Virus record (IMG/VR): IMGVR_UViG_3300035511_000224
Length of the DNA: 20,000 nt
Direction: 5' to 3' (one strand)
Source: an uncultured virus (IMG/VR IMGVR_UViG_3300035511_000224)
Taxonomy: Duplodnaviria > Heunggongvirae > Uroviricota > Caudoviricetes
The notes beneath the pieces were generated by a model. That model saw nothing but the letters and a program-made list of their open reading frames with translations, was not told the DNA's origin and made no database searches. How positions within the stretch are numbered: position 1 is the stretch's first letter; the number at the start of each line of letters is the position of its first letter. Made by a program: the position numbers and the translations under genes. Below are positions 1 through 18,111 of the stretch, piece after piece.

Positions 1-3000
1 TTCAGATTCATTCGCTGTCTCTTCCTCTCCATCATCCTCTTCTGTATATTCAACGCCTGTTGCTGCTTGTACATCTTTATCCATGTCGGCATATTTCGCT
101 TCCTTCTCAGCCATCTCTTTCTTCATCAGCTCATCGTACTCGTCCAACTTGGATTCAGCCTGTGCAAGCTCTTCCGTGAATTGGAATGGCTTGCCCTCGC
201 GTAATTCCATGGAATGCAGTTCTTCGTTGTTACGTTCGATAGAGCGTTCAGCACTCTCTATGCGTTCGCGGAAGTCGTTACCGGTTACTACATTCTCCAC
301 AATGTCAGATATAGCATTTTTGATAAGATTCTCTTTCACCGGCATCTTTTCAATACCAAGTTCCTCACAAGAATAGGTCATCTTGGCAGGAGCCGAGGCA
401 AACAGTGCACCTTGTCCTTGCTTCATCTCCTGTGTAATCTCGGTGTGAATCTTGAAGTCAAAACCTCCGACACTAACAGTGATGTCCATGTTCGCACTTC
501 TACTGTTGTATCCTGTTCGAACCTGCTCCTGTAACTCGCGTTTCTTTTTGTTCTGCTCGCTAAAGAAGTCCTCCATAGCGTCAATATTGGCAAAGCTCTG
601 CTTTCCTACCGTGATGTTGCTAATCTCTGCCTTCTCAACTTTCTCCAGGTAGACCTTATTCTCTGCGGCTCTTTGCTCGGCCTCCTTGTTCTGGCCTGCA
701 ATCTGTCTCTTGCGGTTGTGAATATACGTTTGGTCTGCCTCCCAAGCCTTTTGTTTGGCTCTGAGTTTACGGACCTCTTTCTCTATCTGGTTCTTCATCA
801 TAGCATATTCGGATCCTGACAATTGCGCGGTCATATCACCAAACAAGTCCTGGTCCTCTTCCATAGAGCGGTTGTCCATGGAATTACTCATCAACTGCTT
901 GCCGTTCATGATAGAGTCAGCTATCGCGCCTTTGGTTTTGAGTCGTTGATAGGCTGTAACGTCCAGTGAGTCTTCAACACCAAAACGAAGCACTTTGACA
1001 GGCTTGTTCCAATCTTTGTGCAGGTTACCTTGACGCAAGATACGACCGTTGCGCTGCGTGTAGTCCATCGGTCGGTTAGGTGCATCAACGTGTATAAGAG
1101 TGTTGAGGCGATCTTGAATATTCACACCTGTACCGAGTGTAAAGGTACTACCCAAAATTACACGTACGTCACCGGCATTCACCTTGTCAAAGATTTCAAG
1201 TTTCTTCTTCACACTCATTCCGGACTTCATTACAACAATCTGCTCGGCAGGTACGCCTTGTGCTATGAGCTTGCTTCTTATGTCCTCGTACAGGTTGAAG
1301 CCTGTAGCTTTGTTCTGATAGTTATCTGCAAAGATTGCCACTGTACCTTTATAGTCCTTGGTCTCTTCGAGAGATTGTAAGGTCTGTCTAACGGCCTCAT
1401 TGGTTTTACTGTTCGGATCATCTTCGGCATCTGCTTGCACGAGTCGAGCATCTACGGCAGCGGCTTTCGCTATACCGTACATAACAAGTGGAATGTGGCT
1501 ATTGGCCTTCTTCTCCTTTCCACTCATCTTATCGTATTCGTCAAGCTTTGCATTCACATATTTCAATATACTGCGCAATGCTCGCGTCTGAGGCAGGAAT
1601 ATGTCTTGTGCCTTTCCTCCCTCCATTGAAGGTATCTTGTCACTCACGCCACCGGCTTCTCTTGTCAGCACGGTATCTGCGACTGTTGACCAAATACGCA
1701 CAAGTTCCGGAAGGTTCACGTAACCGGCAAAGCGGTTGTTCTCCTTTGGCTTGCCGTTCGTTCCAAATTCCAACATCTGTTGGATATTACCGAAGTTGCG
1801 TACAAAATCGTCAAAGTAGTAGATACCATATTCTTTCATCTGGTCAGCAGGCATAAGGTAGCGCATGAACGTCCATATCTCGGCCGCGGTGTTACTGATA
1901 GGTGTACCTGTCGCAAACACCACGTTCTTACCTCCGGTCTTTTCAAGCACTGACTGTGCCTTCAAGAATACGCCCTGCGACTTCTTGCTATATGAAGGGT
2001 CAACGCCTTTCACACCTCGCTGCATGGCTGTAGCGAATCCGAGGTGCTTGTACTCGTGAGCCTCATCTACAAGGATGGCGTCAATGCCCATGCTGTCGAA
2101 GTCCTCAACATCATCGGTCTCACGGTCTAGCATCTCTCTTGCCTTGACCTCTGCGTTCTGTCGTGTGACAGCTGCTTTCTTGGCGTCCTTCTCTTTCTTC
2201 TTGTCAGGTACTCCGCCACTAGCGAGCTGAGCAATTTCATCTTCAAGCCTGCTGATTTCACGCTCCGCTTGTTTTACAATAATGCTATTTCCATGCGGGT
2301 CGGCATTCTTCATCTGTTCCAAGACAAGCATTTTTTCCTCGATTTTGTCTTGGATGAATCGTGTTTGTCGCTCTATACTATCTGGAATGCGTTCAAATAC
2401 AGATTGAGGAACAACAATCATATCCCAATCATTGAACTTAATCTTAGCATAGAAAGCCTTACGGCCCTCCGCATTGCGGTCGGCATCTTCAAGTGTCAGC
2501 ACCTTGGCGTTAGGGTACAACGCTTTGGCACTTGCTACGAATTGGCCTACGGTGGCATTCTGTACTACTATCATAGGCTTTCTTGCAGTGCCGAGTCTGC
2601 GCATCTCCATGGCGGTTGTAATAAGAGTGTATGTCTTACCGGTGCCCACCTCGTGTGCCAACAATACTGGCTGTGTGGTTGCTCTGATAACGGCTTTTGC
2701 TTGATGAGGTCTCAACTTGAACGGCTTACCACCTACGACGGTTGCTGCACCTCCGAAGTGCTCCGGAACAAAATCATCGGGGATTTGCTTCGGAACGGAA
2801 TTGTTAAACTGTTCGTTGTACTCTTCCTCCATGCGCATAGACATATCAGGGTCTGCTTGCATCTGTTCTCTAGCCCAATCTTTGAAGTCTTGACGTATCT
2901 CATCAATCTTAGCCATACATGCAGCTGTCGCTGACGGATCGCGTTCAGTCTCTGTGCTTCCGTCTGGCATCTTATATGTTTTGCTGACAACAATGCTCTT

Positions 3001-6000
3001 GTTTGTAATGGCAGCTTCTATCAGTTTATGTCCTGGTATAAGGGTTCCAAATGCTTCACTACGGACTCCCATCTCTGTGTTCTTGGATGTATTTGTATAG
3101 AATGGCTCACCCATGTGCCAGGTACCACCGACACTTGTCAGTGTTACATCCAAGTCAGTACGTTCCTTAACAAAGCGCTCGTACAACTTCGGGTCAATCC
3201 AAGACGAGCCAAGTGTGAACTCGATAAGGTGTGCAGGTATATTCATAGGAACAACGGCCTCCAGCGCCTTGATATTGGCGGTGTAGGCTCCGGGGTTGTC
3301 TTTCTCTGCTTCTTTTGCTTGACGCAGTTTCTCACGCACATTGCCACTGAGGTACTCATACGACACTTCCATCTGTCCGGTGGTCGGATTTTCAAAGCCC
3401 AAACCACGTTCCACCATTTCATTCTTTATCTCCTCCTTACTCTTTCCTAAGTGCTCTGCAAGATAGTCGGAGTCAATGCGGCCAAACTTATACAGACTTG
3501 CAATGATACCATCTTTCACATTGGTAGGTGCCGGCTCTGTTTCCTTGTCAACGACACGACGGCTAAAGATGTCGGTCTTTCCGTACTCTTTAATTTTGCT
3601 GCCGTTCTTGTCACCACGCTCCGAGTAGGTCTCAAGCGCGACAATGCTCGAGAAGTCAACGTCGTTGCGCATCCACGCAAGATTGTTGTTCTTGTTGAGG
3701 TTGCCATACTTCTTCACGAAACTGTCATAAGCGTTATTAAGTTTATTAAGCAACGGCTGCAAGCCTTTGTCATCATCATGCTCTGTTTGGTATTTCAGGA
3801 CCTCAGCAAGAGCATCTTTGATGGCCGTATAGTCTTTGAAGCACTCTTGTTTGGTGTGTCCTTTAATCTTATTGTTGTTTACATCTACAGGTACGGCACG
3901 GCCACTTCGAGCGATACAGATGTTGCCATCGCTGTCTAGAACCATGCTTCCTTCTTTCACACCTTCACCAAGAGCTTCATTGATGTGTGAAGTCTTGTCT
4001 ATTTCGGCTCTACTACCTTGCTCGGATTTCCAGTCTTTATCAGCCAGGCTCTTCACCCATGCTGCAATACGTTCCGTTTGGTCAGCTGAGCGGGTAGGGA
4101 AGAGGCCCATTGAAGTTGGACGGTAATTGTCTCCCTGCTCAAAGCCGAAGAACATCTCACCACCCATATTTTCAGGATGCTCTATGAAATAACGATTAAT
4201 GAGCAACGGAAGGTCTCTCGTCTTTCTTCCATCTGTGAATGCTGCGGTACGTGCAGGACTGACCGTGCTCACGTCGATGGCATTTGCGCTTCGCTGTCCG
4301 TTTACTCGCTTACGTATCACGATGATGTCTGAGGTGGCTGCTGTACCTCCGAATGTTTGATTGTTCATGCGGAATGCACCAACGACATCTGCGTTACCTT
4401 CATGTTCACCTACAATCCAATTGCGAAGCTTTTGAGATTTGTCGAGTGTACCACTTGAAGTGATGAATATACCGATACCTCCTTCACGAAGCTTGCGTAC
4501 ATTCTTAGCGATACAGAAGTCGTGAATGTCGCGGAACTTCTTAGAGAGGTCGCTGTCTCCGCTCTCGTCCATTACGTGCAAGCCTGTGACGAATGGCACA
4601 TTGGTGATGGCCAGATCTACCGTACCGTTACCAATATGTGTTTTCTCAAAGCCCTGTACATCCACTTTAGCATCCGGATATAGTAACGACAGAATACCAC
4701 CTGTCATCTTGTCTATCTCGACGGCATGGATATTACTGCGCTCGCTAATGTCGGTCGGCATCAAGCCGAGGATGTTTCCGATACCGGCTGAACCCTCAAC
4801 GATATTACCTCCTTTAAAACCGAGTGCTTTAGCAATATCCCACATTGCGTCGATAACAGGTGCAGGTGTATAGTACGCACTGTTACGGCTCATCACCGCT
4901 GCATCGTACTCCTCCTGTGTAAGAGCTTTGCGAAGCTGCTGGTTGACAGGATTGCGTGACCATGCATTACCTTCATTAAATGCGGCTCCTAAGCCTCCCC
5001 ATCCGCTATATTTACGAAGAATGGTCATCTCTTGAGGTGTGGCTGTAGCTCCGCTTTCAAGCAGTTTCTTGGCAAGCTCTATCGCTGCGATATTGGCATC
5101 TATACGAGCCTTCTCACCTTTGGGCGCATAATCAACACCACGCTCAGCATGGTTGTTGTGCGTGTTCTTCGGCTCCGTTACGCCTCGCTCGCTCTGATGT
5201 AGTCCAGATACTCCTGTGCTTCGTTTGGTGTCAGACACAGGATGCTCTCCACTACGTTCAGCCACTCCTCCTCGGTCAGTTCGCTCATTTTCATGTGCTG
5301 CGCTCTCTCCCAACGATTCATCAGATCGCGGTTGCTGTCTCCCTCGCCCGGTTGTTTCGGTGCTAGGTCGTACGTCAGTTTTCTCATTGTCGTTATCTTT
5401 TTGAGTGTTATTTACTTTATTTTTCGGCTCAACCTTGGATGGCTCTTCTTCTTTTGTCTCTGCAAAAAGAGGTCCAAACAAGTCACCAATAGTTTGATTT
5501 TGCGTCTCTATCTTCTTAATTCTGCTCCAATCAGCTTTTTCTTTTATCCAATTAGTTCCAAATGAATTAAGGATAGGACTTCCATCTTCGTCGAAGTCAA
5601 CAATCTGCTGTTTCTCCCACTTGCCATTGCCAACTCTGTCCCACATGACATAGTCACCACGTTTGAAGCCGTTGTGTGTCTCATTCTCTTTAGATACACG
5701 CGCTGCCATCTTTACTAAGTCCTCACCAGGGTTAGGTTTCAATGGGGTAGCAGGTTTCACTTTCTCTTCCGGAAGGAGGTGTCTTATAGCTCTACGCACA
5801 TCGGCAATCAGTGCATCATAGGTAACATCTGATGTTATATCATGGTTACCGGTGAGGTATCTGTTTTCTCCTCTTCCTTCCGGATCTTCTGCCCTGAAAT
5901 ATCCTCCTTTGAACACCAAATCGTCTGACGGTCTGTCGGCTCTACCATTGGTAATCCACTTAGAGTTAGGTTCCATGAATAGCACCATGCTAAGTTCTTT

Positions 6001-9000
6001 GCCATTGCCAAGTGGAAGTGTGATTGTCACTTCTCCACCAGCCGGAGCAATATTGCTATGAGCTATCTTGCTACCAAAGCCATAGCGTCTATCGGCTTTT
6101 ACCTTGTCTTTGGCATCAATAGCAAGTCCGAGGTCTTTGGCCAACTGTGTCGCAAGCTGATGCGCATCCTGCGTTGCTTTACGCTCTGCATTGCGCATAT
6201 AACCAAACATCTCGTTGTAGTCCTTATCAACCTCGTCTGCCTCGTAATATCCGAGCAGGGCAAGCTGTTTGTTTACTTCCTCTATTTCTTTGTTGATGCT
6301 TTGATCGAGTCGCTCGGCATCTTCCTCAGTTGTTGCATTTTCGAGTTTACTTTCGACTTGACTTGCAGTAGTCTCTGCTTGGTTGACAACAGCTTCTGTA
6401 TCTGCTGATGTTTTGTCAGCCTCTTTTCTTCTTTGCTCATTACGTTCTTCTTTAATGGTTTCTATTAATTTGTCTGTCTGTTGTTGAGAAGCATTCTCAT
6501 CGACTATCTGTTGTGCAGTTCCGATGATGTCCTTGGCTCCTTGCTTATCAAAGTTATAAACGTCGAAAGCCTTAACGGTCTTTCTGTCGTCCATCTCTTC
6601 GTCCCATCCGAGGTCCATTACCTCCTCCATGTTCTGTGTGGCGGCATATAACGGTTTCAGGTGCGGTCTGATGGCTTCGCCTAACTCATCAACCATTGCT
6701 TCTGCATAGTCCGAGAAGGAACGCAGTCCACCCTTCATCATAAGGTATGTCATTCGGGTACCCATACGAAGAACTTCTGCATCCATCTCTTTAGGCTGCT
6801 GTTTACCGTAGCTCACTTCATCTTCTTTGGCGATGTTTGGGATTCCGCCAAGGTGTGAACGCAGACTATTTCGAAGTGTGTCAAACTCTTCGGCATCCTT
6901 GTCGCTAATCCATTTGCGTCTCTTCGGCTTCGTCTCCTCTGCTTGCGGTTGAGGCTTCGGCGCTTGCGGCTTCTCTTCAACTGGTGTGGCATGGTCGCTA
7001 AGCTTGGTGCTTCCCTTCGTGTATAGGGCATTGAATAATCCTTCAACATCTACCTTCTTGACTGTCGGCTCTTCCTCCTGCTGTTTCTCACTCATATCAG
7101 CCATTGAAAGCGGTGCCTGGTCGGCAACCTCGTCCTCGCTTTTACCCATGATGGCATCGGCAAACGCCTGTGCGTCCTCACGTGTTTTAAATAAGAATCC
7201 TTTCTTACCGAAGTTGGACCAATAGCCTCCATGCTCCTTAGCAATAGCTTTCTGACCTTTGAACTCTTCACGGCTCACTCGATCCTCAAACTTCACTGCA
7301 AAGATGTCCGAGTTATCGCGTGTGTCCTTACGAGGTTCTATGGTGTAGCCTTCGGGTTCTTTTCCCGTTGGGTGCTCGTCTGTGATTTTGTCAACCTTGG
7401 CATAGTCGGCAAAAGGTTTGGTCTTTCGGTGGCTGCTGTCCACCCACTTCTTAAACTCGTCCATGTTCACTTCTGAGATACGAAGTCCCGGATGTGTGTC
7501 TGCCCAATTAGCATCATAGTTGGCAAGGTACGCCTCCATAGCTGCGTCCTTGTCATTGAAGCCAAGCATAACCTTGTGCTCGTCGAAGGTGCCGTCACTG
7601 TTTGTTTGGTCAACGACGAATGCTTTCTTGCCGTCCCATGACTTGATGTCGTTGGCAAGGAACACATCTATATGGTCGCCATCCACGCCCTCAGTGCCAC
7701 GGAAATATCCATAGCTATTCTTCATGGGTGTCTCCCACTGTTTCCCGTTAGAATCAGTGCCACGGCGTACACTGCCTTGTGTGTTCTCGATGGTAACGTC
7801 GAATGGACCAACCTTCACATGGCCCTTCTTATAGTTTCCTGCCTCCTTCTGTGCTTCGGTCGGGTTGTTGTTAACCTGCTGCTCCGCTTCGGCAATCTTG
7901 TCGGCTGTTTCCTCGAGTGGTGACTTCACCTCTCTAGCGCTGCTCTTATCGAACACAATGACCTCGTTAGGCAGTGCTACTGCCTCGCGCATGTCTTTGC
8001 TTGCGTAGTTGATGATGCCGTCATATCCTTGTTCCTTCAACTTCTCCGTGAAAGCTGCTGCCTCTTCAGGAGTCATGTTGGCCACACCTACAGTGTAGTA
8101 AGGCTTCTTCAATGTGATGTTTGCCTCAAATACCTTGCCCTCTGTATGTCCGTCACTCGCGTAGTCCTCGGCAACAGAGCGGTTTGGTGTGAATGATATA
8201 CCATCACCATTGAATCGTGCAGGAGCTTCTTCGCCGTCACGATGGTGCCCTGGCTCGAGGTCGCTCAATGAATTGACATCATCATTTGGTGTACCATGAT
8301 ACAACGTGAGTGTCGTTCCATTAGCGTCAACGATGTTACCATCCTTGTCAACGTTCGTAGGAGTCTGGTCTACATCTTCTGTCAACTGCTTAATGTTGTC
8401 TGCATGCGTTGAACTTTTTTCGTTCTCTGCTTGTTTTTCTGTTGACAAAGTATTAACTTTGCCTTCAGAAGAAACATCATCGCCACGAGATTCAAGGCTT
8501 ATTGCGGATGCAGATTCGTCTGCATGACTGATGGAGGAAGTGCCGCCCTCCGACGATGAACTTTTATGCCGTATGTCATCTATCTTGGCATACGGCTCTT
8601 TCTTTTGGTTGAATGTAGATTTGTGAAGAATGATTTTACCATTTTCCTCAACTTGGGTAAGTTCAGCAAAATAACGACCAATCTTCTTAATAAACACAAC
8701 GGTTCTCTTCCCATCTACAAACGTTTCTTTGATTGCATCCGGGCTGTCAAGAACAGTTTGAATATTAAGATATTTGCTTACATCTACATCTTCTACATCA
8801 ATCTGCATTCCTTCTTGAGCATGATTGCGTAGGGCATGGTCAATGAAATAACCCTTCCCACAGTATATACGTGGGTCGGAGATATTTGGATCGACGTATG
8901 AAAGATATTGTGCAGGTATATATGCTATCGGTTCCGGCTCGTTGCCAAATTCTTCAAAGATTTCTGTACGAGTCTTGCCAATACCCTTGGTGAGGTTTTC

Positions 9001-12000
9001 ATCAGAGAGCCATTCTACAATACGAGACTGCATCTCTGTCCTTTCCTCACCGCTTACTTCCTGCGGTATAACTCTTTCATGTTCGCTCTCATCTCCGCCT
9101 GTTGCGCTATCTCTTGCAGTTCTTCCTCTACGCTCGGTCGGTTCTGTTCCGCCCTCAGCTTGTTCTCCACCTTTATATGGTTCATTGCTTCCAGGTTCCC
9201 CTTCTGTGCTTCCTGTATTACTGAGAGCCACATCAGGACCTCCATTCTTGTCATTGTTGTTTCCATTCTTAGCCGGTTTATAATCAAAATTAAATACTTT
9301 CTTTATTGCCTCCGCAAGAGGGTACAGCGTAGTATCAGCCTCACTAAATAGTGATGCTGCGACTTTGCCCTGTGCATAATCAAACATCCGGTTGAAATAT
9401 GAAGCGATGGTTGTCTGCGACATATCACCTGCTTTATACAACCCTGCGAGATGCAAAGCAAAGTTACTAAAATTATCAGAAGGTCTGACTTGTTCAGAAC
9501 GATCATCAAACATTAATTGCCTTTTGTAGTCCTCAATTGCACGAGATGCCTGTTCTAGATTCTTCGCATTCTTAAATGCTTCGTCACGTTCCAGCTCATT
9601 ATAAGCCACGATAGATGCTTGTATCTCCGGCAAGGCCTTTCCTGCAAAAGGAGAATCCATGTCGCGGAATGCCGTTGACAGAATTGCACGTTGAGCCTTG
9701 GCAGGAAGTTTGTCAAACAGCTCCTCTAACTGCGGTGTAGCACCTTTAAATACTGCTTGATACAAAACCTTCTGCAAATCATTCTTAGCCTCTGGCGTGA
9801 TGGCGCCCTTGCTGTTGAATGCCGACTGGTATTGTGTATTACTGATGGCTCCAACTTGATTCATCCATTTCAGAACATCGGCACCGTTACTGTCAACGAG
9901 TTGGCCGAACGACGCATCTTCATCAGCTGAGCGGAGCAACATATTGGCATACTTGCGCATATCGTCGCCCAACTTCTGTGCTACGTTCTTCGGCTTGATA
10001 CGTTCTACGCCACCGCTTTCAGTGTCATTGGCGGTCATCTGACCTAAGCGAATAGCCTCGTTATCGTCCACATCAAGCATATTTACGAGGACTGGCTGCT
10101 GCTTACTGTTAACGGTTTCTGCATCAATGCCAAGTTGCTCTGCATTGTCGAGAAGGTATTGCTTGTATGCCGCTTGCTGTTCTGGTAGACTGTTCTCCCA
10201 CAAGTAACGCAAAGCGTCCGTGCGGTTATTGCCTTGTACCACCTCACCACGAGTGTTAACTGTCGGTGCGCCGGTGTAAGCGGTTGTGCTACCTGTAATC
10301 TCTTCTGGTCTGATGTTCTCGGCAATTTGTTGTGCTGCGAGTGTTGACACGGCCTCTGAGCGGTTCTTTGGCTGTGCCTCATCAATAAAGTACATCGGGT
10401 TGCGCTTACCTTGAATGTGTGAAGGTTGCAGCTGCGATGCCTCAATCACTGCCACACGTCCGTGCGGTATATCTTCCTGTGAGAACTTGACATTAACCTC
10501 TTTGCCAAGCGCTGCATCAGCGATAGGCTCTTGGCGAACGAACAGTTGACCTTGGAACCGTCGCGCACCTCTAGCACGTGCGTTCTCAGGAGTATCTCTA
10601 TGCCATTCGGGAATACCTTCAAGTGCTTCACGCTCTTTGCGCTCAGCCTCCTCTTGTGCAGCCTTTGCCTCGCGTTCCTGTTCGGCTCTCTCTGCTGCAA
10701 GTCGTTTTTCTTCGGCTTCTTGCTTACTGCGGATGGCATCTTGCTCACGACGTATCGCATCCTGTCTAGCCTGTTCAACACCGGCAATCTTCTGCCACTG
10801 TTCAAGCTCCTGCTGAGCCTTGGCGAGTTCTGCGGCATTCTGTCTCTTAGATTGGAGTATCTCGGTTGGAGTCTTGCCCTTCGATTTGAGTTTCTGCGCT
10901 TTCTCGAAAACTTTGCGCTTCTCCTCAACCATAGTGTCGGCAATCTCCTTGGCTGTGTCCTTGTCTCCCTCGCTGAACTCGATAAGACCATCCCACGCGA
11001 CCTCGGGAGTCTCGGCTTGCTCAAAGATAGGTTCACCATTTTCATCACGAGGAATACTTTGAAGCGGTGTCTGCTCTTCGGCAGGTACTGCAGGTTGCTG
11101 TTCATTTTCTACGGATTGTGAACTCGAAGGTGCGTTTTCTGTTCGCAAATTGCCGTTTTCTGTAATGTTTGGGCCATTTTCCGTACCAAATTCACCGTTT
11201 TGCGTAATATTTGGAGCATTTTCCGTGATATTTTCATTAGTTTCCGTATTTGCGACTTCGGCACCTGACTCCTGTTGTCTGCGCTGTTGCTCATACTGTA
11301 AAGCTGCGACATATCCACTGCCGGCATCAGTCATTTGCTCAGCTTCATTGTTGATGCTTTCCAACTCGGCATTTAGTTCTTCGTCAGTCATCTTCTCAGC
11401 AGACTGCATGCCAGCTGTATATCCTTTCTGGTATTCGTTCGGATCTGCACCCTCAGTAGTCGTTGGCGCCTGAGTGGGTGTTTCCTCTTGCTGTTTTGTA
11501 TCTGGTTTGAAGTCTGTAACCATACTATCAAGCTCTTGCTCAGACGCATAGTGCAAGTGACTGAGGTCTCCTTCTACATAATACTCATACTTGCCAATCT
11601 CGTTGGGAGATAAGCCAAGTTCATCGTAATTATCCTCGGTAACAGTCGTTCCGGTAAGCCATCCTTTAGACTGTGAACCATCGCTGTTTTGTATAGAGAT
11701 TCGTCCTGCACCATACTTCGGCTGTTCTGTAGCTTCCGGTTGCTCGTCAGCTGCTGCTTCGGGTGTAGGTGTAGCCTCTGTAGTAGCCTCTTCTGCCTTG
11801 TAAGGCTCGTAAGACAGAATGTCTTTAGGAGCAACCATCTCCACCTTGCCGGTATTGATGTCACGTATTACAATAGTATTGTCGCTCTTCGCGTGATCAA
11901 CCATTTTACCATCATCGGTCATAACGACATTTCCGCTAAGCACCTCAACCTGTCGGTCCTGGAACTGCATAACGGCTCGTCCTATCGGCTTCTGTTCCCC

Positions 12001-14991
12001 GTTAGGTTCATGAGGTTCTCCATTGATGTCACCCTCTGGCTGTGGATCTGGGCCATTGATTGGGCCTTCGGTCGGCTCACCACTGTCGGTCAAAAGCTTT
12101 TGGTCTTTCAGAAGCTTTTGGTCTGTGACGTCAGTTGCGTCAGCATCTTCAACTGTGCGCTCTTTGGCCTTGTTAGGGATAAGCTCGTTGATATATTCTT
12201 GAATGGCGCTGTTCTCAGCCTCTGTGCGTCTCCGCTCGTCCTTTCGAATTGCTTTGTCGATGTCAACACCATACTTGTCATTTATGCGGCCACGCATCTC
12301 GTCAGTTATAGTGGTTTCATCATAGTCACCTATAGCCTCGACAACCTTGCGAAGTATGTTCTGCTGTGCCTCGCTAAGTTGGTCGTTCTTGTCAGCACCT
12401 TTAAGATGATTGCGACGTGCCTCTTCGCAAGTGCGGTACACTTGCACCATGTCCCAACCATTCTCTTCGGCAACCTTGCGACAAGCGTCTTGCAATCGGT
12501 TCTCAAAGTAAACAATATTCTGCTGATATTGCTCACCTTTTTCTATCTGGTTGATTTCAGCTTGTCGTTTGATGCGTTCCAACTCGAGGTCAGCTGCTTT
12601 GCGGTCTTTAAAGCTTCGCGAGGTGATAACACCATTTGCTCCTTGCGATTCCACAATGAAGCCTCCGTCACCATCTTCAATCATCTCTCCACGCATAATT
12701 GTAGATGGAGGAAGCTGTTTACCTGTAGCATAGTAGTACATCTTTGCACGTGCTGCTTCACTAACACGATTGTCTTCTAACATGTCAGTTAAACGGCTTA
12801 CAATCTTCGGCGCATCTTTTGTGATAAGACTTCCATCAGATGGATTACCTTGTCTCTCGGCGCTCTCTACAAGGCTGCGGAGGTCTCCATAACCATTGCG
12901 TTCCAGTTCGGCCTTCTCGTCCTTTGTCAGTGCCATACCACCGTCTGATGGTGCATCCATGCGCATACGCAGACGGCTCTCGAAGTCGAGACGATTCTTT
13001 GTGCCATTAGTCGGACTCTCGAGCGACTTCTTAAGGTCTCCAAGTACACTTCCTGCTGATTTAATCATGCCCTTAGCCTTGAAACCTACCATCATGGCCA
13101 TATTGTCCGTCCATACGTCCATTGCGTCTTGGTCTCCGTTCAACCATTCCGGAACGGAGAAGATGGTACCTTCCAATACAGTAGAACCGGTAAACACACT
13201 TGCACGTGTGGCAACCTTTCCGACAGTGCTCGACGTGCCTCGTACAAGTTTGTCAGATACATTACCAGACACAGGAGACAGCCAACCGATGGCCGCGCCC
13301 ATCATGCTACCATGAAGAAGTTGTTTTCCAACGGCTCCTGCCGAATATCCTTCATTCATATATCGTCCGCTCTGGTCTTGGCCCACGATGTGACCTCCAT
13401 GAGCGAATTGTGTTTCAGCCTCCTTGATACCTTCCATAGCACCGAAGTTGGCTGCGCCACCTACAACACCACTGACGATACGACCGGTTAATGTAGTCGC
13501 GAACTGGCGTGCAGCGGCGTTTGTTAATGCAGCCGTAGCTCCACGGCCTACAAGATAGCGTCCACCTGCCCACATCGCGCCCTTTGCGGCAGCACTACCT
13601 ATACCTCCGGAAATCCATGTGGTTGGATCGAGAGCAAAACCACCCACGGTACCCACAACACCAAGTACCTTGTGTCCGTCTTGGCGATATTCTTCATTGG
13701 CGGCTTCGTATGCTGCCATATCACCGGTTTTACCGGAAGCGGCCAAAACTTCAAATCCTTTGGTGATATTGTTCACCATGTTACCATCTGAAATTTTACG
13801 TGCAAGGTATTCAAGCTCATTCTTAGGACGGTTCTTCTCGACGGCAAGATCGTACAAGCGCTTATCGGACTGTTGTCGTGCCATCTCTTCTGCTTTCGTA
13901 TAAAGAAGGAGGTCATCCTCACCTGGATAACGGTAACGCAGCATCTGATGACAATCGTCGATGAGTGATTGTTGGCCTTTCTCTCCGAGATTATTCCATG
14001 AATCTTCCATTAAGCGGTCAAGATCAAAATTGGTGAGTCTCGCTACATCCATTTGATATTTCAATCCTGTAGCCATCGCTCGGTTTTCTCTACCACCTAA
14101 CGCCAAAGATTTCAATCCTTTCATTAAGACGTTCTCTTGACCATTTAACTCAGGAGACTCATGCTTTATGATTTTTTCTGACTGTTCATTCAGCCTTTGT
14201 TCAGCAGCGTCCCACGCCTGCTCTGCGGCATTCTCGCCCTCTGCCGGATCATGACGACTCCACAAGGAACTAAGACGGCCCTCAAATTCACGTTGCAACC
14301 GTTTGTTTTTGGAGCGTTGGCCATCCTCGGTGTTGTTTTCCCACCAGGTATGATATTCAGTGTTCTTCCGGCTCTGCTCCATAGGCGTACTTACTCGATC
14401 TCCTTGTTGTGTGTAGTAGACCTTCTCCATCTTTCCGGTCTGTGGATTGAACACTTGCTCACCGGTAGATGCACCAAGCATGTTTCCCTTTTGAATATTC
14501 TCCATGAACTGTTGATTATCCTCCAGGGTCTTTCTCACTTGCTCGTTAGCCTGTCCAATTTGCATGTCAATTGCCTTGCGTTGCATCTCCGTCGGTTGCC
14601 ACGTCGGCTCTTTGGTCTGCTGTGTTGTCTGCTCCGGCTGTTTCACTGCCGGTGCCGTCGGATGATTTTCAACTTTAGCAGAAGTCGCTGTTCTATCTAC
14701 TACAGGATTTACAACAGATGTAACCTGCTTAACAGGTGTACTCGCTTGTGTCTGCGCCTGTTGATTTTTTGTTGTACTACTCTTTGCAGGTGCCTGCGCT
14801 GCCACGGCTCCAATATCCTTAGAGAAGGTGTCGAAGTCTGGCAACGAATAAGCTTTCTGCATATTGTTGTAGAAACGTCTGCGCTTCTCCTCGTCCTTCA
14901 TATCTTTAGAGAAAGTATCGAAGTCAGGAAGCGAGAAGTGCTTCAAGCCGTTTTCGTACAACTTGTGTAAGTTATCGTTTGGATTAACCAT
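1..14991 (-). CDS. Giant phage polyvalent / internal virion protein (DarB-like MTase-helicase containing), >=4997 aa, 3'-partial
   Basis: ATG at 14991 (MVNPNDNLHKLYENGLKHFSLPDFDTFSKD...). The same frame reads ...TGVEYTEEDDGEEETANESE at positions 60-1. It was open in every segment I translated, and the track reports no closed ORF in this frame, which an internal stop would have produced. Several recognisable domains lie in frame. Confidence 0.92.
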   Translation of the reverse strand, partial: MVNPNDNLHKLYENGLKHFSLPDFDTFSKDMKDEEKRRRFYNNMQKAYSLPDFDTFSKDIGAVAAQAPAKSSTTKNQQAQTQASTPVKQVTSVVNPVVDRTATSAKVENHPTAPAVKQPEQTTQQTKEPTWQPTEMQRKAIDMQIGQANEQVRKTLEDNQQFMENIQKGNMLGASTGEQVFNPQTGKMEKVYYTQQGDRVSTPMEQSRKNTEYHTWWENNTEDGQRSKNKRLQREFEGRLSSLWSRHDPAEGENAAEQAWDAAEQRLNEQSEKIIKHESPELNGQENVLMKGLKSLALGGRENRAMATGLKYQMDVARLTNFDLDRLMEDSWNNLGEKGQQSLIDDCHQMLRYRYPGEDDLLLYTKAEEMARQQSDKRLYDLAVEKNRPKNELEYLARKISDGNMVNNITKGFEVLAASGKTGDMAAYEAANEEYRQDGHKVLGVVGTVGGFALDPTTWISGGIGSAAAKGAMWAGGRYLVGRGATAALTNAAARQFATTLTGRIVSGVVGGAANFGAMEGIKEAETQFAHGGHIVGQDQSGRYMNEGYSAGAVGKQLLHGSMMGAAIGWLSPVSGNVSDKLVRGTSSTVGKVATRASVFTGSTVLEGTIFSVPEWLNGDQDAMDVWTDNMAMMVGFKAKGMIKSAGSVLGDLKKSLESPTNGTKNRLDFESRLRMRMDAPSDGGMALTKDEKAELERNGYGDLRSLVESAERQGNPSDGSLITKDAPKIVSRLTDMLEDNRVSEAARAKMYYYATGKQLPPSTIMRGEMIEDGDGGFIVESQGANGVITSRSFKDRKAADLELERIKRQAEINQIEKGEQYQQNIVYFENRLQDACRKVAEENGWDMVQVYRTCEEARRNHLKGADKNDQLSEAQQNILRKVVEAIGDYDETTITDEMRGRINDKYGVDIDKAIRKDERRRTEAENSAIQEYINELIPNKAKERTVEDADATDVTDQKLLKDQKLLTDSGEPTEGPINGPDPQPEGDINGEPHEPNGEQKPIGRAVMQFQDRQVEVLSGNVVMTDDGKMVDHAKSDNTIVIRDINTGKVEMVAPKDILSYEPYKAEEATTEATPTPEAAADEQPEATEQPKYGAGRISIQNSDGSQSKGWLTGTTVTEDNYDELGLSPNEIGKYEYYVEGDLSHLHYASEQELDSMVTDFKPDTKQQEETPTQAPTTTEGADPNEYQKGYTAGMQSAEKMTDEELNAELESINNEAEQMTDAGSGYVAALQYEQQRRQQESGAEVANTETNENITENAPNITQNGEFGTENGPNITENGNLRTENAPSSSQSVENEQQPAVPAEEQTPLQSIPRDENGEPIFEQAETPEVAWDGLIEFSEGDKDTAKEIADTMVEEKRKVFEKAQKLKSKGKTPTEILQSKRQNAAELAKAQQELEQWQKIAGVEQARQDAIRREQDAIRSKQEAEEKRLAAERAEQEREAKAAQEEAERKEREALEGIPEWHRDTPENARARGARRFQGQLFVRQEPIADAALGKEVNVKFSQEDIPHGRVAVIEASQLQPSHIQGKRNPMYFIDEAQPKNRSEAVSTLAAQQIAENIRPEEITGSTTAYTGAPTVNTRGEVVQGNNRTDALRYLWENSLPEQQAAYKQYLLDNAEQLGIDAETVNSKQQPVLVNMLDVDDNEAIRLGQMTANDTESGGVERIKPKNVAQKLGDDMRKYANMLLRSADEDASFGQLVDSNGADVLKWMNQVGAISNTQYQSAFNSKGAITPEAKNDLQKVLYQAVFKGATPQLEELFDKLPAKAQRAILSTAFRDMDSPFAGKALPEIQASIVAYNELERDEAFKNAKNLEQASRAIEDYKRQLMFDDRSEQVRPSDNFSNFALHLAGLYKAGDMSQTTIASYFNRMFDYAQGKVAASLFSEADTTLYPLAEAIKKVFNFDYKPAKNGNNNDKNGGPDVALSNTGSTEGEPGSNEPYKGGEQAEGGTEPTERRGRTARDSATGGDESEHERVIPQEVSGEERTEMQSRIVEWLSDENLTKGIGKTRTEIFEEFGNEPEPIAYIPAQYLSYVDPNISDPRIYCGKGYFIDHALRNHAQEGMQIDVEDVDVSKYLNIQTVLDSPDAIKETFVDGKRTVVFIKKIGRYFAELTQVEENGKIILHKSTFNQKKEPYAKIDDIRHKSSSSEGGTSSISHADESASAISLESRGDDVSSEGKVNTLSTEKQAENEKSSTHADNIKQLTEDVDQTPTNVDKDGNIVDANGTTLTLYHGTPNDDVNSLSDLEPGHHRDGEEAPARFNGDGISFTPNRSVAEDYASDGHTEGKVFEANITLKKPYYTVGVANMTPEEAAAFTEKLKEQGYDGIINYASKDMREAVALPNEVIVFDKSSAREVKSPLEETADKIAEAEQQVNNNPTEAQKEAGNYKKGHVKVGPFDVTIENTQGSVRRGTDSNGKQWETPMKNSYGYFRGTEGVDGDHIDVFLANDIKSWDGKKAFVVDQTNSDGTFDEHKVMLGFNDKDAAMEAYLANYDANWADTHPGLRISEVNMDEFKKWVDSSHRKTKPFADYAKVDKITDEHPTGKEPEGYTIEPRKDTRDNSDIFAVKFEDRVSREEFKGQKAIAKEHGGYWSNFGKKGFLFKTREDAQAFADAIMGKSEDEVADQAPLSMADMSEKQQEEEPTVKKVDVEGLFNALYTKGSTKLSDHATPVEEKPQAPKPQPQAEETKPKRRKWISDKDAEEFDTLRNSLRSHLGGIPNIAKEDEVSYGKQQPKEMDAEVLRMGTRMTYLMMKGGLRSFSDYAEAMVDELGEAIRPHLKPLYAATQNMEEVMDLGWDEEMDDRKTVKAFDVYNFDKQGAKDIIGTAQQIVDENASQQQTDKLIETIKEERNEQRRKEADKTSADTEAVVNQAETTASQVESKLENATTEEDAERLDQSINKEIEEVNKQLALLGYYEADEVDKDYNEMFGYMRNAERKATQDAHQLATQLAKDLGLAIDAKDKVKADRRYGFGSKIAHSNIAPAGGEVTITLPLGNGKELSMVLFMEPNSKWITNGRADRPSDDLVFKGGYFRAEDPEGRGENRYLTGNHDITSDVTYDALIADVRRAIRHLLPEEKVKPATPLKPNPGEDLVKMAARVSKENETHNGFKRGDYVMWDRVGNGKWEKQQIVDFDEDGSPILNSFGTNWIKEKADWSRIKKIETQNQTIGDLFGPLFAETKEEEPSKVEPKNKVNNTQKDNDNEKTDVRPSTETTGRGRQQPRSDESLGESAAHENERTDRGGVAERSGEHPVSDTKRSTGVSGLHQSERGVTEPKNTHNNHAERGVDYAPKGEKARIDANIAAIELAKKLLESGATATPQEMTILRKYSGWGGLGAAFNEGNAWSRNPVNQQLRKALTQEEYDAAVMSRNSAYYTPAPVIDAMWDIAKALGFKGGNIVEGSAGIGNILGLMPTDISERSNIHAVEIDKMTGGILSLLYPDAKVDVQGFEKTHIGNGTVDLAITNVPFVTGLHVMDESGDSDLSKKFRDIHDFCIAKNVRKLREGGIGIFITSSGTLDKSQKLRNWIVGEHEGNADVVGAFRMNNQTFGGTAATSDIIVIRKRVNGQRSANAIDVSTVSPARTAAFTDGRKTRDLPLLINRYFIEHPENMGGEMFFGFEQGDNYRPTSMGLFPTRSADQTERIAAWVKSLADKDWKSEQGSRAEIDKTSHINEALGEGVKEGSMVLDSDGNICIARSGRAVPVDVNNNKIKGHTKQECFKDYTAIKDALAEVLKYQTEHDDDKGLQPLLNKLNNAYDSFVKKYGNLNKNNNLAWMRNDVDFSSIVALETYSERGDKNGSKIKEYGKTDIFSRRVVDKETEPAPTNVKDGIIASLYKFGRIDSDYLAEHLGKSKEEIKNEMVERGLGFENPTTGQMEVSYEYLSGNVREKLRQAKEAEKDNPGAYTANIKALEAVVPMNIPAHLIEFTLGSSWIDPKLYERFVKERTDLDVTLTSVGGTWHMGEPFYTNTSKNTEMGVRSEAFGTLIPGHKLIEAAITNKSIVVSKTYKMPDGSTETERDPSATAACMAKIDEIRQDFKDWAREQMQADPDMSMRMEEEYNEQFNNSVPKQIPDDFVPEHFGGAATVVGGKPFKLRPHQAKAVIRATTQPVLLAHEVGTGKTYTLITTAMEMRRLGTARKPMIVVQNATVGQFVASAKALYPNAKVLTLEDADRNAEGRKAFYAKIKFNDWDMIVVPQSVFERIPDSIERQTRFIQDKIEEKMLVLEQMKNADPHGNSIIVKQAEREISRLEDEIAQLASGGVPDKKKEKDAKKAAVTRQNAEVKAREMLDRETDDVEDFDSMGIDAILVDEAHEYKHLGFATAMQRGVKGVDPSYSKKSQGVFLKAQSVLEKTGGKNVVFATGTPISNTAAEIWTFMRYLMPADQMKEYGIYYFDDFVRNFGNIQQMLEFGTNGKPKENNRFAGYVNLPELVRIWSTVADTVLTREAGGVSDKIPSMEGGKAQDIFLPQTRALRSILKYVNAKLDEYDKMSGKEKKANSHIPLVMYGIAKAAAVDARLVQADAEDDPNSKTNEAVRQTLQSLEETKDYKGTVAIFADNYQNKATGFNLYEDIRSKLIAQGVPAEQIVVMKSGMSVKKKLEIFDKVNAGDVRVILGSTFTLGTGVNIQDRLNTLIHVDAPNRPMDYTQRNGRILRQGNLHKDWNKPVKVLRFGVEDSLDVTAYQRLKTKGAIADSIMNGKQLMSNSMDNRSMEEDQDLFGDMTAQLSGSEYAMMKNQIEKEVRKLRAKQKAWEADQTYIHNRKRQIAGQNKEAEQRAAENKVYLEKVEKAEISNITVGKQSFANIDAMEDFFSEQNKKKRELQEQVRTGYNSRSANMDITVSVGGFDFKIHTEITQEMKQGQGALFASAPAKMTYSCEELGIEKMPVKENLIKNAISDIVENVVTGNDFRERIESAERSIERNNEELHSMELREGKPFQFTEELAQAESKLDEYDELMKKEMAEKEAKYADMDKDVQAATGVEYTEEDDGEEETANESE
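900..2730 (-). other. SNF2/SF2 helicase domain of the giant protein (DarB-like)
   Basis: Q motif LRPHQ, Walker A HEVGTGKT (2655-2632), Walker B LVDEAH (about 2073-2056), motif III ATGTPISN, motif VI QRNGRILRQGN. Confidence 0.93.
4150..5160 (-). other. N6-adenine DNA methyltransferase domain of the giant protein (DarB-like)
   Basis: YSGWGG, motif X AYYTP, motif I VEGSAGIG (about 4800-4777), motif IV NVPF (4602-4591), LREGGIGIFITS. Confidence 0.92.
5178..5387 (-). CDS. Small helical protein (69 aa) nested in the +1 frame of the giant gene
   Basis: MRKLTYDLAP...LTEEEWLNVVESILCLTPNEAQEYLDYIRASEA has globular, amphipathic composition, while the host frame here is a disordered G/R/S/E linker. The start context aaaaagataacgacaATG has A at -3, -6 and -11 to -13. 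Confidence 0.65.
   Translation of the reverse strand: MRKLTYDLAPKQPGEGDSNRDLMNRWERAQHMKMSELTEEEWLNVVESILCLTPNEAQEYLDYIRASEA
7400..7870 (-). other. Inorganic pyrophosphatase (polyvalent-protein InPase) domain
   Basis: NPTEAQKEAGNYKKGH...IEN..GS.R.G...W...M...YGYFRGTEGVDGDHIDVF...VVDQ...FDEHKVMLGF...FKKW. Confidence 0.9.
7945..8360 (-). other. ADP-ribosyltransferase (ART-PolyVal-like) domain
   Basis: LYHGT (about 8304-8290), GDGISFTPNRSVAEDYA, KVFEANITLKKP, LKEQGYDGII, and terminal EVIVF carrying the putative catalytic Glu. Confidence 0.85.
8430..8461 (+). promoter_or_regulatory. Putative antisense Bacteroidetes primary-sigma promoter inside the giant gene
   Basis: cTTG (8430-8433), 20-nt spacer, TAACTTTG (8454-8461); compare consensus TTTG-N19-21-TAnnTTTG. 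Confidence 0.6.
8467..8565 (+). ncRNA. Candidate ~95-nt structured antisense RNA
   Basis: Closing stem TCATCG (8477-82) / CGATGA (8554-59); hairpin ATGCAGA-TTCG-TCTGCAT (8508-25); hairpin GGAGG/CCTCC (8533-51); short T-run at 8562-65; begins just after a promoter match. Confidence 0.45.
8560..8990 (-). other. PBECR-like (Barnase/EndoU/Colicin E5-D/RelE fold) nuclease domain
   Basis: ...YFIDHALRNH...YLNIQTVLDSPDAIKE...VVFIKKIGRYFAELTQVEENGKIILHKSTF fits the H...H / L..PD.I / strand-strand-(S/T)xF layout of phage BECR domains. The segment is lower in GC than other parts of the gene. Confidence 0.65.
9054..9266 (-). CDS. Small helical protein (~66-70 aa) nested in the +1 frame of the giant gene
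   Basis: METTMTRMEVLMWLSVIQEAQKGNLEAMNHIKVENKLRAEQNRPSVEEELQEIAQQAEMRANMKELYRRK. The host frame here is a disordered linker (GGPDVALSNTGSTEGEPGS...). ATG 9254 has A at -3, -6, -12, -13; ATG 9266 has A at -3. Confidence 0.62.
   Translation of the reverse strand: METTMTRMEVLMWLSVIQEAQKGNLEAMNHIKVENKLRAEQNRPSVEEELQEIAQQAEMRANMKELYRRK
10000..10510 (-). other. ddrB-like ParB-superfamily domain
   Basis: AVIEASQLQPSH...AQPKNRS...IAENIRPEEI...AYTGAPTVNTRGEVVQGNNRTDAL...YKQYL...LGID...PVLV. Confidence 0.85.
11131..11250. repeat. Degenerate 21-bp tandem repeat (5-6 units) in a linker of the giant gene
   Basis: Units start at 11131, 11152, 11173, 11194 and 11215, with consensus approximately gCc(a/g)TTTTcCGTaatatttgg; they encode TENAPNI/TENGPNI-like heptads. 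Confidence 0.75.
13070..13690 (-). other. Gly/Ala-rich hydrophobic segment (possible membrane-spanning ejection module)
   Basis: VLGVVGTVGGFALDPTTWISGGIGSAAAKGAMWAGG...IVSGVVGGAANFGAMEG...GSMMGAAIGWL, similar in character to N-terminal regions of injected phage proteins. Confidence 0.55.
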
Positions 14992-17514: not shown

Positions 17515-17634
17515 CCATCTAATTTGGTCTACTTTTAGAACTACATGCCGAGCAGATTACCCGGCATGTAGTTGTGAAATAGAAACGATTTATTCCTTCC
17601 CCAATAATGCCAATTATTCCCCCATTTATGGTCA

Positions 17635-17985
17635 TTAATTCAGAAGTTTTGTTTATTTCTTCCGAAGTTATTACTTTTTCTTCCGAAGTAATTCTTATTT
17701 CTTCGGAATTAATCCCCATTTCTTCCGAAAAATTCCGAATAAAAGGACATTTCTTCCCGGATTGATTTTTTTTCGAAAAACAGGGTGAAAATAGGTGTTT
17801 TGAAAAGGTCCAAAAATTGTCGTTTTACAGGCGTTTCTTGCCATTTTCCGCCAAAAATTACTTCGGAAGTTTTTGCCATTTCTTCGGAAGTTATACTAAT
17901 TAATTCCGAAGTTATTCATATTTCTTCCGAAGTTATTGCAATAAATTCTGAAATCTTCGGAAGAAAAGGGCATTTCTTCCGAAAC
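17635..17985. repeat. Two iteron-like arrays of TTCnGAA with 21-bp period (putative replication origin or other protein-binding array)
   Basis: Cores start at 17639, 17660, 17681, 17702, 17723, 17733 and at 17862, 17883, 17904, 17925, 17946, 17956, 17977. An A/T-rich tract follows at about 17987-18032. Confidence 0.85.
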
Positions 17986-18111
17986 CTTTTTTTTAAAAGA
18001 AAAGAAAAAGAAATAAAAAAGAAATATATATATCGTTGAGTTGACTTTACGCGTACGCGCGAGAGAAATTTTCTTTGAGCTTCGCAGAAAATGGATTGAT
18101 ACGCGAGAATG

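Follow-up and report, generated by a model that had tools for sequence, protein, structure and literature searches.

A Gene Nested in the +1 Frame of a Giant Polyvalent-Type Phage Gene, with a Constant Core and a Tail that Varies with the Neighboring Module

The 20,000 nucleotides at the end of a 65,022-base record from an uncultured member of the Caudoviricetes (IMG/VR IMGVR_UViG_3300035511_000224), hereafter the window, contain a small minus-strand gene (9054–9266) that lies in the +1 frame of a giant gene of the DdrB/DarB type (the host gene, read in the host frame), immediately behind a module carrying a ddrB-ParB domain. Judged from its sequence, this nested open reading frame (ORF) is almost certainly a gene: it appears in the same alternative frame in relatives, is under purifying selection in its own frame, and bears the start signals of the host lineage. 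Comparison among relatives establishes the nesting, the fixed position after the ParB module, selection on the nested frame in both the core and the tail of the product, and the preservation of an open host frame. The product may be a separately expressed inhibitor that stays in the cell and acts on packaged enzyme modules, a reading to which a probability of roughly 40% is assigned.

Results

The ORF described by the first-pass annotation is present on the minus strand, and the peptide quoted there corresponds exactly to residues 8–53 of a 70-amino-acid product. The start originally assigned, TTG 9287 (which would give 77 amino acids), is less likely than ATG 9266 (70 amino acids) or ATG 9254 (66 amino acids), because an in-frame stop sits a median of 4 codons ahead of the Met in relatives and a Met at position 5 is present in 93% of 60 aligned family members. 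The stop codon is TAA at 9056–9054.

An open +1 frame proves little by itself, and it is the comparison with relatives that carries the case. The giant gene holds 10 ATG-led +1 ORFs of at least 66 amino acids, and the +1 frame stays open over this host linker in 26% of random synonymous draws, so the initial argument that two instances within one gene make chance less likely is weak when taken alone; chance is excluded by conservation together with frame-specific selection. The host frame is open in just 0.45% of 2,000 random codon draws encoding the nested protein. Since free codon choice so seldom leaves the host frame open, host read-through is maintained as well.

A homolog search recovered 15 close proteins, and the family comprises 87 clusters at 50% identity. 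A profile built from 76 members gave 117 matches in 116 of 118 sequences (the two misses being marginal loci), all 117 of them in the +1 frame relative to a long open frame that encloses them, although these matches are redundant and represent 55 distinct proteins with the window counted twice. A sample of 401 genomes of the order Bacteroidales contained 3 true matches and 2 marginal ones (E-value about 6e-4), the latter unconfirmed by the local profile. When loci were fetched through the ParB region of the host gene, all 81 (the best 80 of 246 viral loci plus the cultured phage BS-TP4) carried an intact, Met-led copy (51 distinct proteins) that starts between −2 and +46 nucleotides from the end of the ParB module; the ParB query alignment was itself derived from loci first found via the nested gene, and many of the loci repeat earlier ones. 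None of the loci examined has the gene at any other position, a plasmid search returned no match, and a pattern scan for DNA of the most distant family members yielded only 17 contigs, all already in the set. The nested gene is also present, without annotation, in BKO1-TP3 and BS-TP4, two temperate Bacteroides phages available in culture.

Frame-specific selection, which had been proposed as a check, turned out as expected for a coding nested frame. The ratio of nonsynonymous to synonymous substitution rates (dN/dS) is 0.22 in the nested frame versus 1.74 in the host frame over 54 codons of 18 distinct cores (taken from 23 in ungapped register, with L008, L018, L022, and L026 excluded), whereas a control of 60 upstream host codons shows the inverse pattern, 0.085 in the host frame versus 2.1 in the +1 frame. 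Across 85 distinct cores, the corresponding ratio of polymorphism (pN/pS) is 0.51 (0.40–0.66) in the nested frame versus 1.58 in the host frame. All of these selection ratios are pooled pairwise counts on related sequences. The aligned loci, inspected by eye, show no stop-start coupling between the nested stop and a following host-frame Met. One RNA run (share 0.05) gave scattered low-depth contigs, none of those listed spanning the nested ORF, which speaks neither for nor against its expression.

The AlphaFold model of the nested protein consists of three helices (residues 7–21, 25–40, and 46–69) with a predicted local distance difference test score (pLDDT) of 95. Comparison of the nested protein with Pfam (best E-value 0.064–0.079) and PHROG (best E-value 0.01) returned nothing of note, and Foldseek searches of viral and PDB structures gave no match at E ≤ 0.001. 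The best fold Z-score among 48,161 chains, 4.5, says nothing for a three-helix protein, and the nearest clusters in the atlas (top score 0.90) are unnamed. The nested protein has a possible resemblance to the sigma-70 region 1.2 / HTH_16-like helix pair; HTH_16 is matched weakly by 5 of 76 family members (best E-value 0.04), and no sigma factor occurs among the solved-structure sequence matches at E ≤ 10. The selection on the nested frame (inverted relative to the upstream control), the many clusters of the family, and the confidently predicted fold leave scarcely any chance that the ORF is no gene and only an open frame shadowing a biased linker, an explanation for which the frequency of open +1 frames in the giant gene could be cited.

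A survey of 96 distinct nested genes in 197 loci indicates that the product is composed of two parts. The first is a constant core of about 50 residues (residues 1–50 and 9117–9266 on the minus strand in the window; an unnamed family), with W13, A20, G23, R38, P44, E49, and L50 conserved in at least 90%. The tail varies with the next host domain, and the 20-amino-acid tail of the window (9054–9116, minus strand) is common to four relatives with the same downstream domain. The next host domains include PBECR1, 2, and 3, LPD3, MuF-C, kinase, and InPase (36 segments scanned, 7 without a match). Of 54 distinct tails that precede a nuclease, kinase, LPD3, MuF-C, or unassigned module, 41 have at least 20 residues, compared with 0 of 14 in the InPase (pyrophosphatase) group; five tails in four small groups are excluded from this count. 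The first-pass suggestion that the nested gene is tied to its neighboring modules is thus upheld, with a change in its terms: the core accompanies ddrB-ParB (81/81 loci) and not PBECR, and it is the tail that follows the downstream enzyme.

The tails themselves are constrained, with pN/pS values of 0.29–0.52 in the nested frame across six groups of 2–10 sequences; for the tail group of the window the value is 0.43 (95% interval 0.22–0.79, last 14 codons) in the nested frame and 0.78 in the host frame. All six kinase tails contain a domain of 73–83 amino acids with conserved aromatic residues (pN/pS 0.29). In L033, L035, L042, L043, L045, and L085 (from about position 6001), this nested tail always precedes Kinase-PolyVal, and in L043 the nested core is duplicated. 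Similar tails are joined to different core clades, and the junction often falls inside or just after the core (e.g., L022). When the downstream type is mapped onto a quick tree of 45 ParB regions, 29 changes are required, compared with a mean of 31.0 after shuffling (21 of 200 shuffles were as low), so the cassettes are freely exchanged and the core remains attached to the ParB module. Tail and downstream enzyme move together as one cassette.

The predicted translation start region (9267–9290, minus strand) has an A at −3 and is A/T-rich, weakly folded, and without a Shine-Dalgarno sequence. Among 50 distinct start contexts, none contains a Shine-Dalgarno sequence and all have an A at −3 (compared with 36% of 2,078 control ATGs); an A at −12 is found in 84%, the A+T content is 73%, and the folding energy at the start is −2.4 versus −9.7 kcal/mol in controls. 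Such features are reported as determinants of translation start in Bacteroidetes in passages of PMC6847099. The −3 base is at the same time a second codon position of the host frame, and the start-context signal may partly reflect host amino-acid constraint.

A TAnnTTTG box (9459–9466, minus strand) lies within the host coding sequence and is a candidate −7 element of an internal promoter. Of 45 loci with less than 88% identity, 41 have it, about 190–210 nucleotides ahead of the ATG. When 195 conserved columns are ranked by how strictly one synonymous codon is retained, those of its Phe and Ser codons come first and fourth, and its first T persists where the amino acid changes. In passages of PMC7366714, such a box is described as the primary sigma factor's −7 element. 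A second TAnnTTTG occurs at 9285–9292 (minus strand), 20–26 nucleotides before the nested ATG, and is found at that distance in only 1 locus.

Genomic Setting and Other Nested Genes

Within the window, the giant host ORF (1–14991, minus strand; start at 14991) is represented by the first 4,997 of its 7,302 codons, and it belongs to a temperate, Bacteroidales-type phage of 65 kilobases. The scanned part of the ORF contains Pfam-type ddrB-ParB, ART-PolyVal, InPase, and SNF2 helicase domains together with a PBECR3-like domain. The ddrB-ParB domain (10078–10458, minus strand; host residues 1512–1638; Pfam, E-value 2.2e-24) has weak fold matches to ParB/Noc and is followed by a helical extension of the ParB module (9277–10077, minus strand; host residues about 1639–1905) that ends just before the nested start. 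The nested ORF then overlaps host residues 1909–1978, a disordered-looking linker rich in G/S/T/E/N, much as the G/S/T/E-rich linker had been described. Beyond the linker lies the PBECR3-like domain (8572–9048, minus strand; host residues about 1982–2140), an exchangeable downstream cassette. Of the proposed placement between a ParB region and a nuclease domain, the ParB side is supported by the Pfam match (E-value 2e-24); on the nuclease side, the domain of the window itself has no Pfam match at E ≤ 1, and it is 73–77% identical to four relatives that score PBECR3 at E-values of 2e-6 to 3e-5, which fall below the curated cut-off.

Upstream of the giant ORF are a T7 gp14-like gene (weak, E-value 2.5e-4) and an integrase-like gene. 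The relatives are found in Bacteroidales genomes and in the two cultured phages, in both of which the giant gene precedes the portal gene. Several conflict domains are thus combined in one polypeptide encoded among virion genes, as in polyvalent proteins, and from this genomic context and passages of PMC5512222 the giant protein is presumably packaged into the virion. Between a small plus-strand gene and the integrase-like gene, positions 17519–18039 are A/T-rich with repeated short units (EVI/EEI-like runs when translated). The assemblies of L017 (5709–6356) and L020 have a host frame broken near the nested gene, through either decay or sequencing error, and an intact nested gene.

The giant gene contains a second nested +1 gene (5178–5387, minus strand; 69 amino acids), belonging to a different family, which is located before the DarB-like methylase-helicase part. 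The first-pass annotation had assigned both ORFs the same +1 offset, which the frame check bore out, and this one likewise proves to be real: its 17 distinct copies all lie within long host frames, with a pN/pS of 0.24 in the nested frame versus 1.87 in the host frame. No promoter box is conserved ahead of the nested ORFs at this site. In other phages, two or more distinct nested families occupy this position before the methylase. A third candidate nested +1 ORF (67 amino acids) with an A/T-rich start lies after the helicase at host residues 5005–5071 of G000, just past window position 1; a TAnnTTTG box is present at its start, and the stretch that follows resembles a JAB/RadC domain. Another nested family of about 105 amino acids is found in L034, L035, L038, L053, L054, and L087, 2.3–4.2 kilobases after the nested gene and before a further host module.

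Discussion

The steps leading beyond the existence of the gene can be inferred as follows. An internal promoter would uncouple expression from the late giant transcript, and lysogens or producing cells would hold the nested protein before the enzymes appear. The helical core would bind the ParB module, with the helical extension a more likely target than the catalytic domain, and the tail helix would help to block the downstream nuclease or kinase. Because the gene is written into the linker, enzyme and antidote would be inseparable during cassette recombination, and the enzymes would be packaged and injected without the antidote. A broader version, in which giant injected phage proteins are arrays of dual-coded cassettes, each enzyme having its own antidote encoded in the +1 frame of the linker beside it (here fused into a modular inhibitor that lysogens make from an internal promoter and that combines a constant anti-ParB core with a swappable tail), is doubtful. 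If true, it would amount to a phage-against-phage toxin-immunity system inside one virion gene, deciding which relatives superinfect.

A number of findings weigh against a partner role. The pairing expected of a toxin and its partner is seen for the core and ParB (81/81), but it has exceptions, and 13 of the 54 tails before nuclease-type modules are short, some of them where the same domain type elsewhere has long ones (PBECR1 3/5, PBECR3 2/3, MuF-C 2/2); the pN/pS interval of one tail group extends to 1.0. L018 has an intact core with no ParB domain within 900 residues upstream, and L010 and L021 have a replaced ParB catalytic domain, 41% identical to that of sister loci, together with a core whose first half has not changed. 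Neither P1 ddrB nor five other DdrB-ParB genes of proteobacterial phages, all six distant, contain a nested ORF after ParB that scores by an ad hoc codon measure, and co-occurrence with ParB is also expected from physical linkage alone. The core additionally forms the N-terminal or a repeated domain of proteins of 230–346 amino acids (P0078, a cluster of 5; P0108, a cluster of 8; and P0093), with two copies each in P0079 and P0022. The box is only a candidate promoter, since no −33 element is conserved upstream of it and the implied leader of 190 nucleotides is long by the measure given in passages of PMC7366714 (median 32 nucleotides, 13.5% over 100 nucleotides); it could possibly be another DNA or RNA signal. 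Moreover, that DdrB-ParB and PBECR are active and toxic is itself a prediction, made in PMC5512222. Long tails are retained in L034 and L194 after loss of the matching enzyme (a kinase in L034), which fits either orphan immunity or plain hitch-hiking.

Some related observations concern the same loci and proteins. In L018 (5710–5946), an unassigned helical domain replaces the ParB module and is followed by its own 79-amino-acid +1 ORF and then by the usual nested gene. P0079 and P0093 also contain a stretch resembling, by eye, a domain of the giant host protein; the genomic context of the longer fused core forms was looked for and not found.

Alternatively, the product may have an independent function, such as lysogeny control or counter-defence, with a host or phage target unrelated to its neighbors, a linker that tolerates dual coding, and tails that are swap leftovers kept for helix formation and solubility. 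L018, which retains the core without ParB, the longer proteins headed by the same core (including those in which it is doubled), and the presence of the gene's own promoter box all agree with such a role. It is nevertheless unlikely, if the most credible of the alternatives, given that the nested gene is never away from this position in the loci examined, that the tails are under selection, and that the 73–83-amino-acid type with its conserved aromatics stays with the kinase. The fixed position beside the ParB module could instead point to an assembly helper that blocks no activity and, as a chaperone, assists the giant virion protein in folding or packaging, comparable to the Dar accessory proteins of P1, where small genes flank ddrB and darB and where Ulx is listed, in passages of PMC9024508, as aiding DarB localization. 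A chaperone would leave short tails before nucleases in no need of explanation, but would not account for the way tails vary with the enzyme; a product of the late transcript would need no housekeeping-type internal promoter box, and no likeness to P1 Hxr, DdrA, or IddB was found (hhalign probability ≤0.14%; Ulx outside the comparison). This possibility ranks next and is likewise improbable.

Far less probable is recoding, by which ribosomal frameshifting into the nested frame would provide an alternative end of the giant protein or a short leader for the downstream enzyme. Frame-crossing database proteins do exist (P0018, a single sequence where checked, and P0023), but these fusions could equally well be mutants or errors of assembly, and the conserved stretch opens with a Met that has a strong start context and is preceded, within a few codons, by an in-frame stop. 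A cell-retained inhibitor, separately expressed, remains the preferred reading.

The nested gene represents a conserved protein family overlooked by standard annotation in common human-gut temperate phages, and BS-TP4 is reported in 31.3% of 930 viromes in passages of PMC12694917. An inhibitor would offer a testable answer to the question of how a phage makes packaged nucleases or kinases without harming the producing cell, on which the polyvalent-protein passages of PMC5512222 are silent, and the cultured phages with their cultured hosts make direct tests feasible. The 'low-complexity linkers' of such proteins deserve rereading as possible coding shadows.

Comparison with Known Systems

The set of DdrB-ParB, PBECR, InPase, and DarB-like helicase modules found in the present host protein was also described among virion genes in passages of Iyer et al. 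2017 on polyvalent proteins (PMC5512222). In the main text of that paper the word 'overlapping' is absent and 'nested' occurs twice (in the passage shown, of a hairpin), and its passages, supplements aside, describe no nested partner genes. Among the literature covered, which did not extend to subscription papers and supplements, no paper was found on same-strand nested genes in polyvalent phage proteins.

The Rpn antitoxins, as presented in passages of 10.1101/2023.05.02.539157, are gene-within-gene products that act on their host protein, and, as small proteins whose own promoter and start lie within a nuclease gene, they are the model for the mechanism proposed here. Rpn_S, however, comes from a bacterial defence gene and corresponds, in frame, to the C-terminal part of the toxin, whereas the present product is out of frame (+1), unrelated in sequence to its host protein or the end of it, and encoded in a phage virion gene; its inhibitory activity is putative, and of its candidate internal promoter the −7 box is conserved and the −33 element is not. 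GndA, encoded out of frame within gnd of E. coli (passages of 10.64898/2026.10.22.760973), is another helical microprotein, one acting on what its containing gene encodes, but it is membrane-associated and heat-controlled, resides in a metabolic gene, and has no exchangeable tail.

In P1, ulx follows darB, and iddB is an annotated ORF inside a ddrB gene; it differs from the nested family in being on the opposite strand, in its length of 132 amino acids, in its position over the ParB/helical region, and in having no similarity of sequence. Lambda Rz1, inside Rz, is a phage gene wholly embedded in the +1 frame of its partner gene, but Rz1 and Rz are membrane lysis proteins and the host gene is small, whereas the present product has no visible lipoprotein or membrane features. 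Embedded genes and intragenic antitoxins are thus already known, and what is new is the family itself, its conserved internal promoter-like box, and its design of a core plus a swappable tail.
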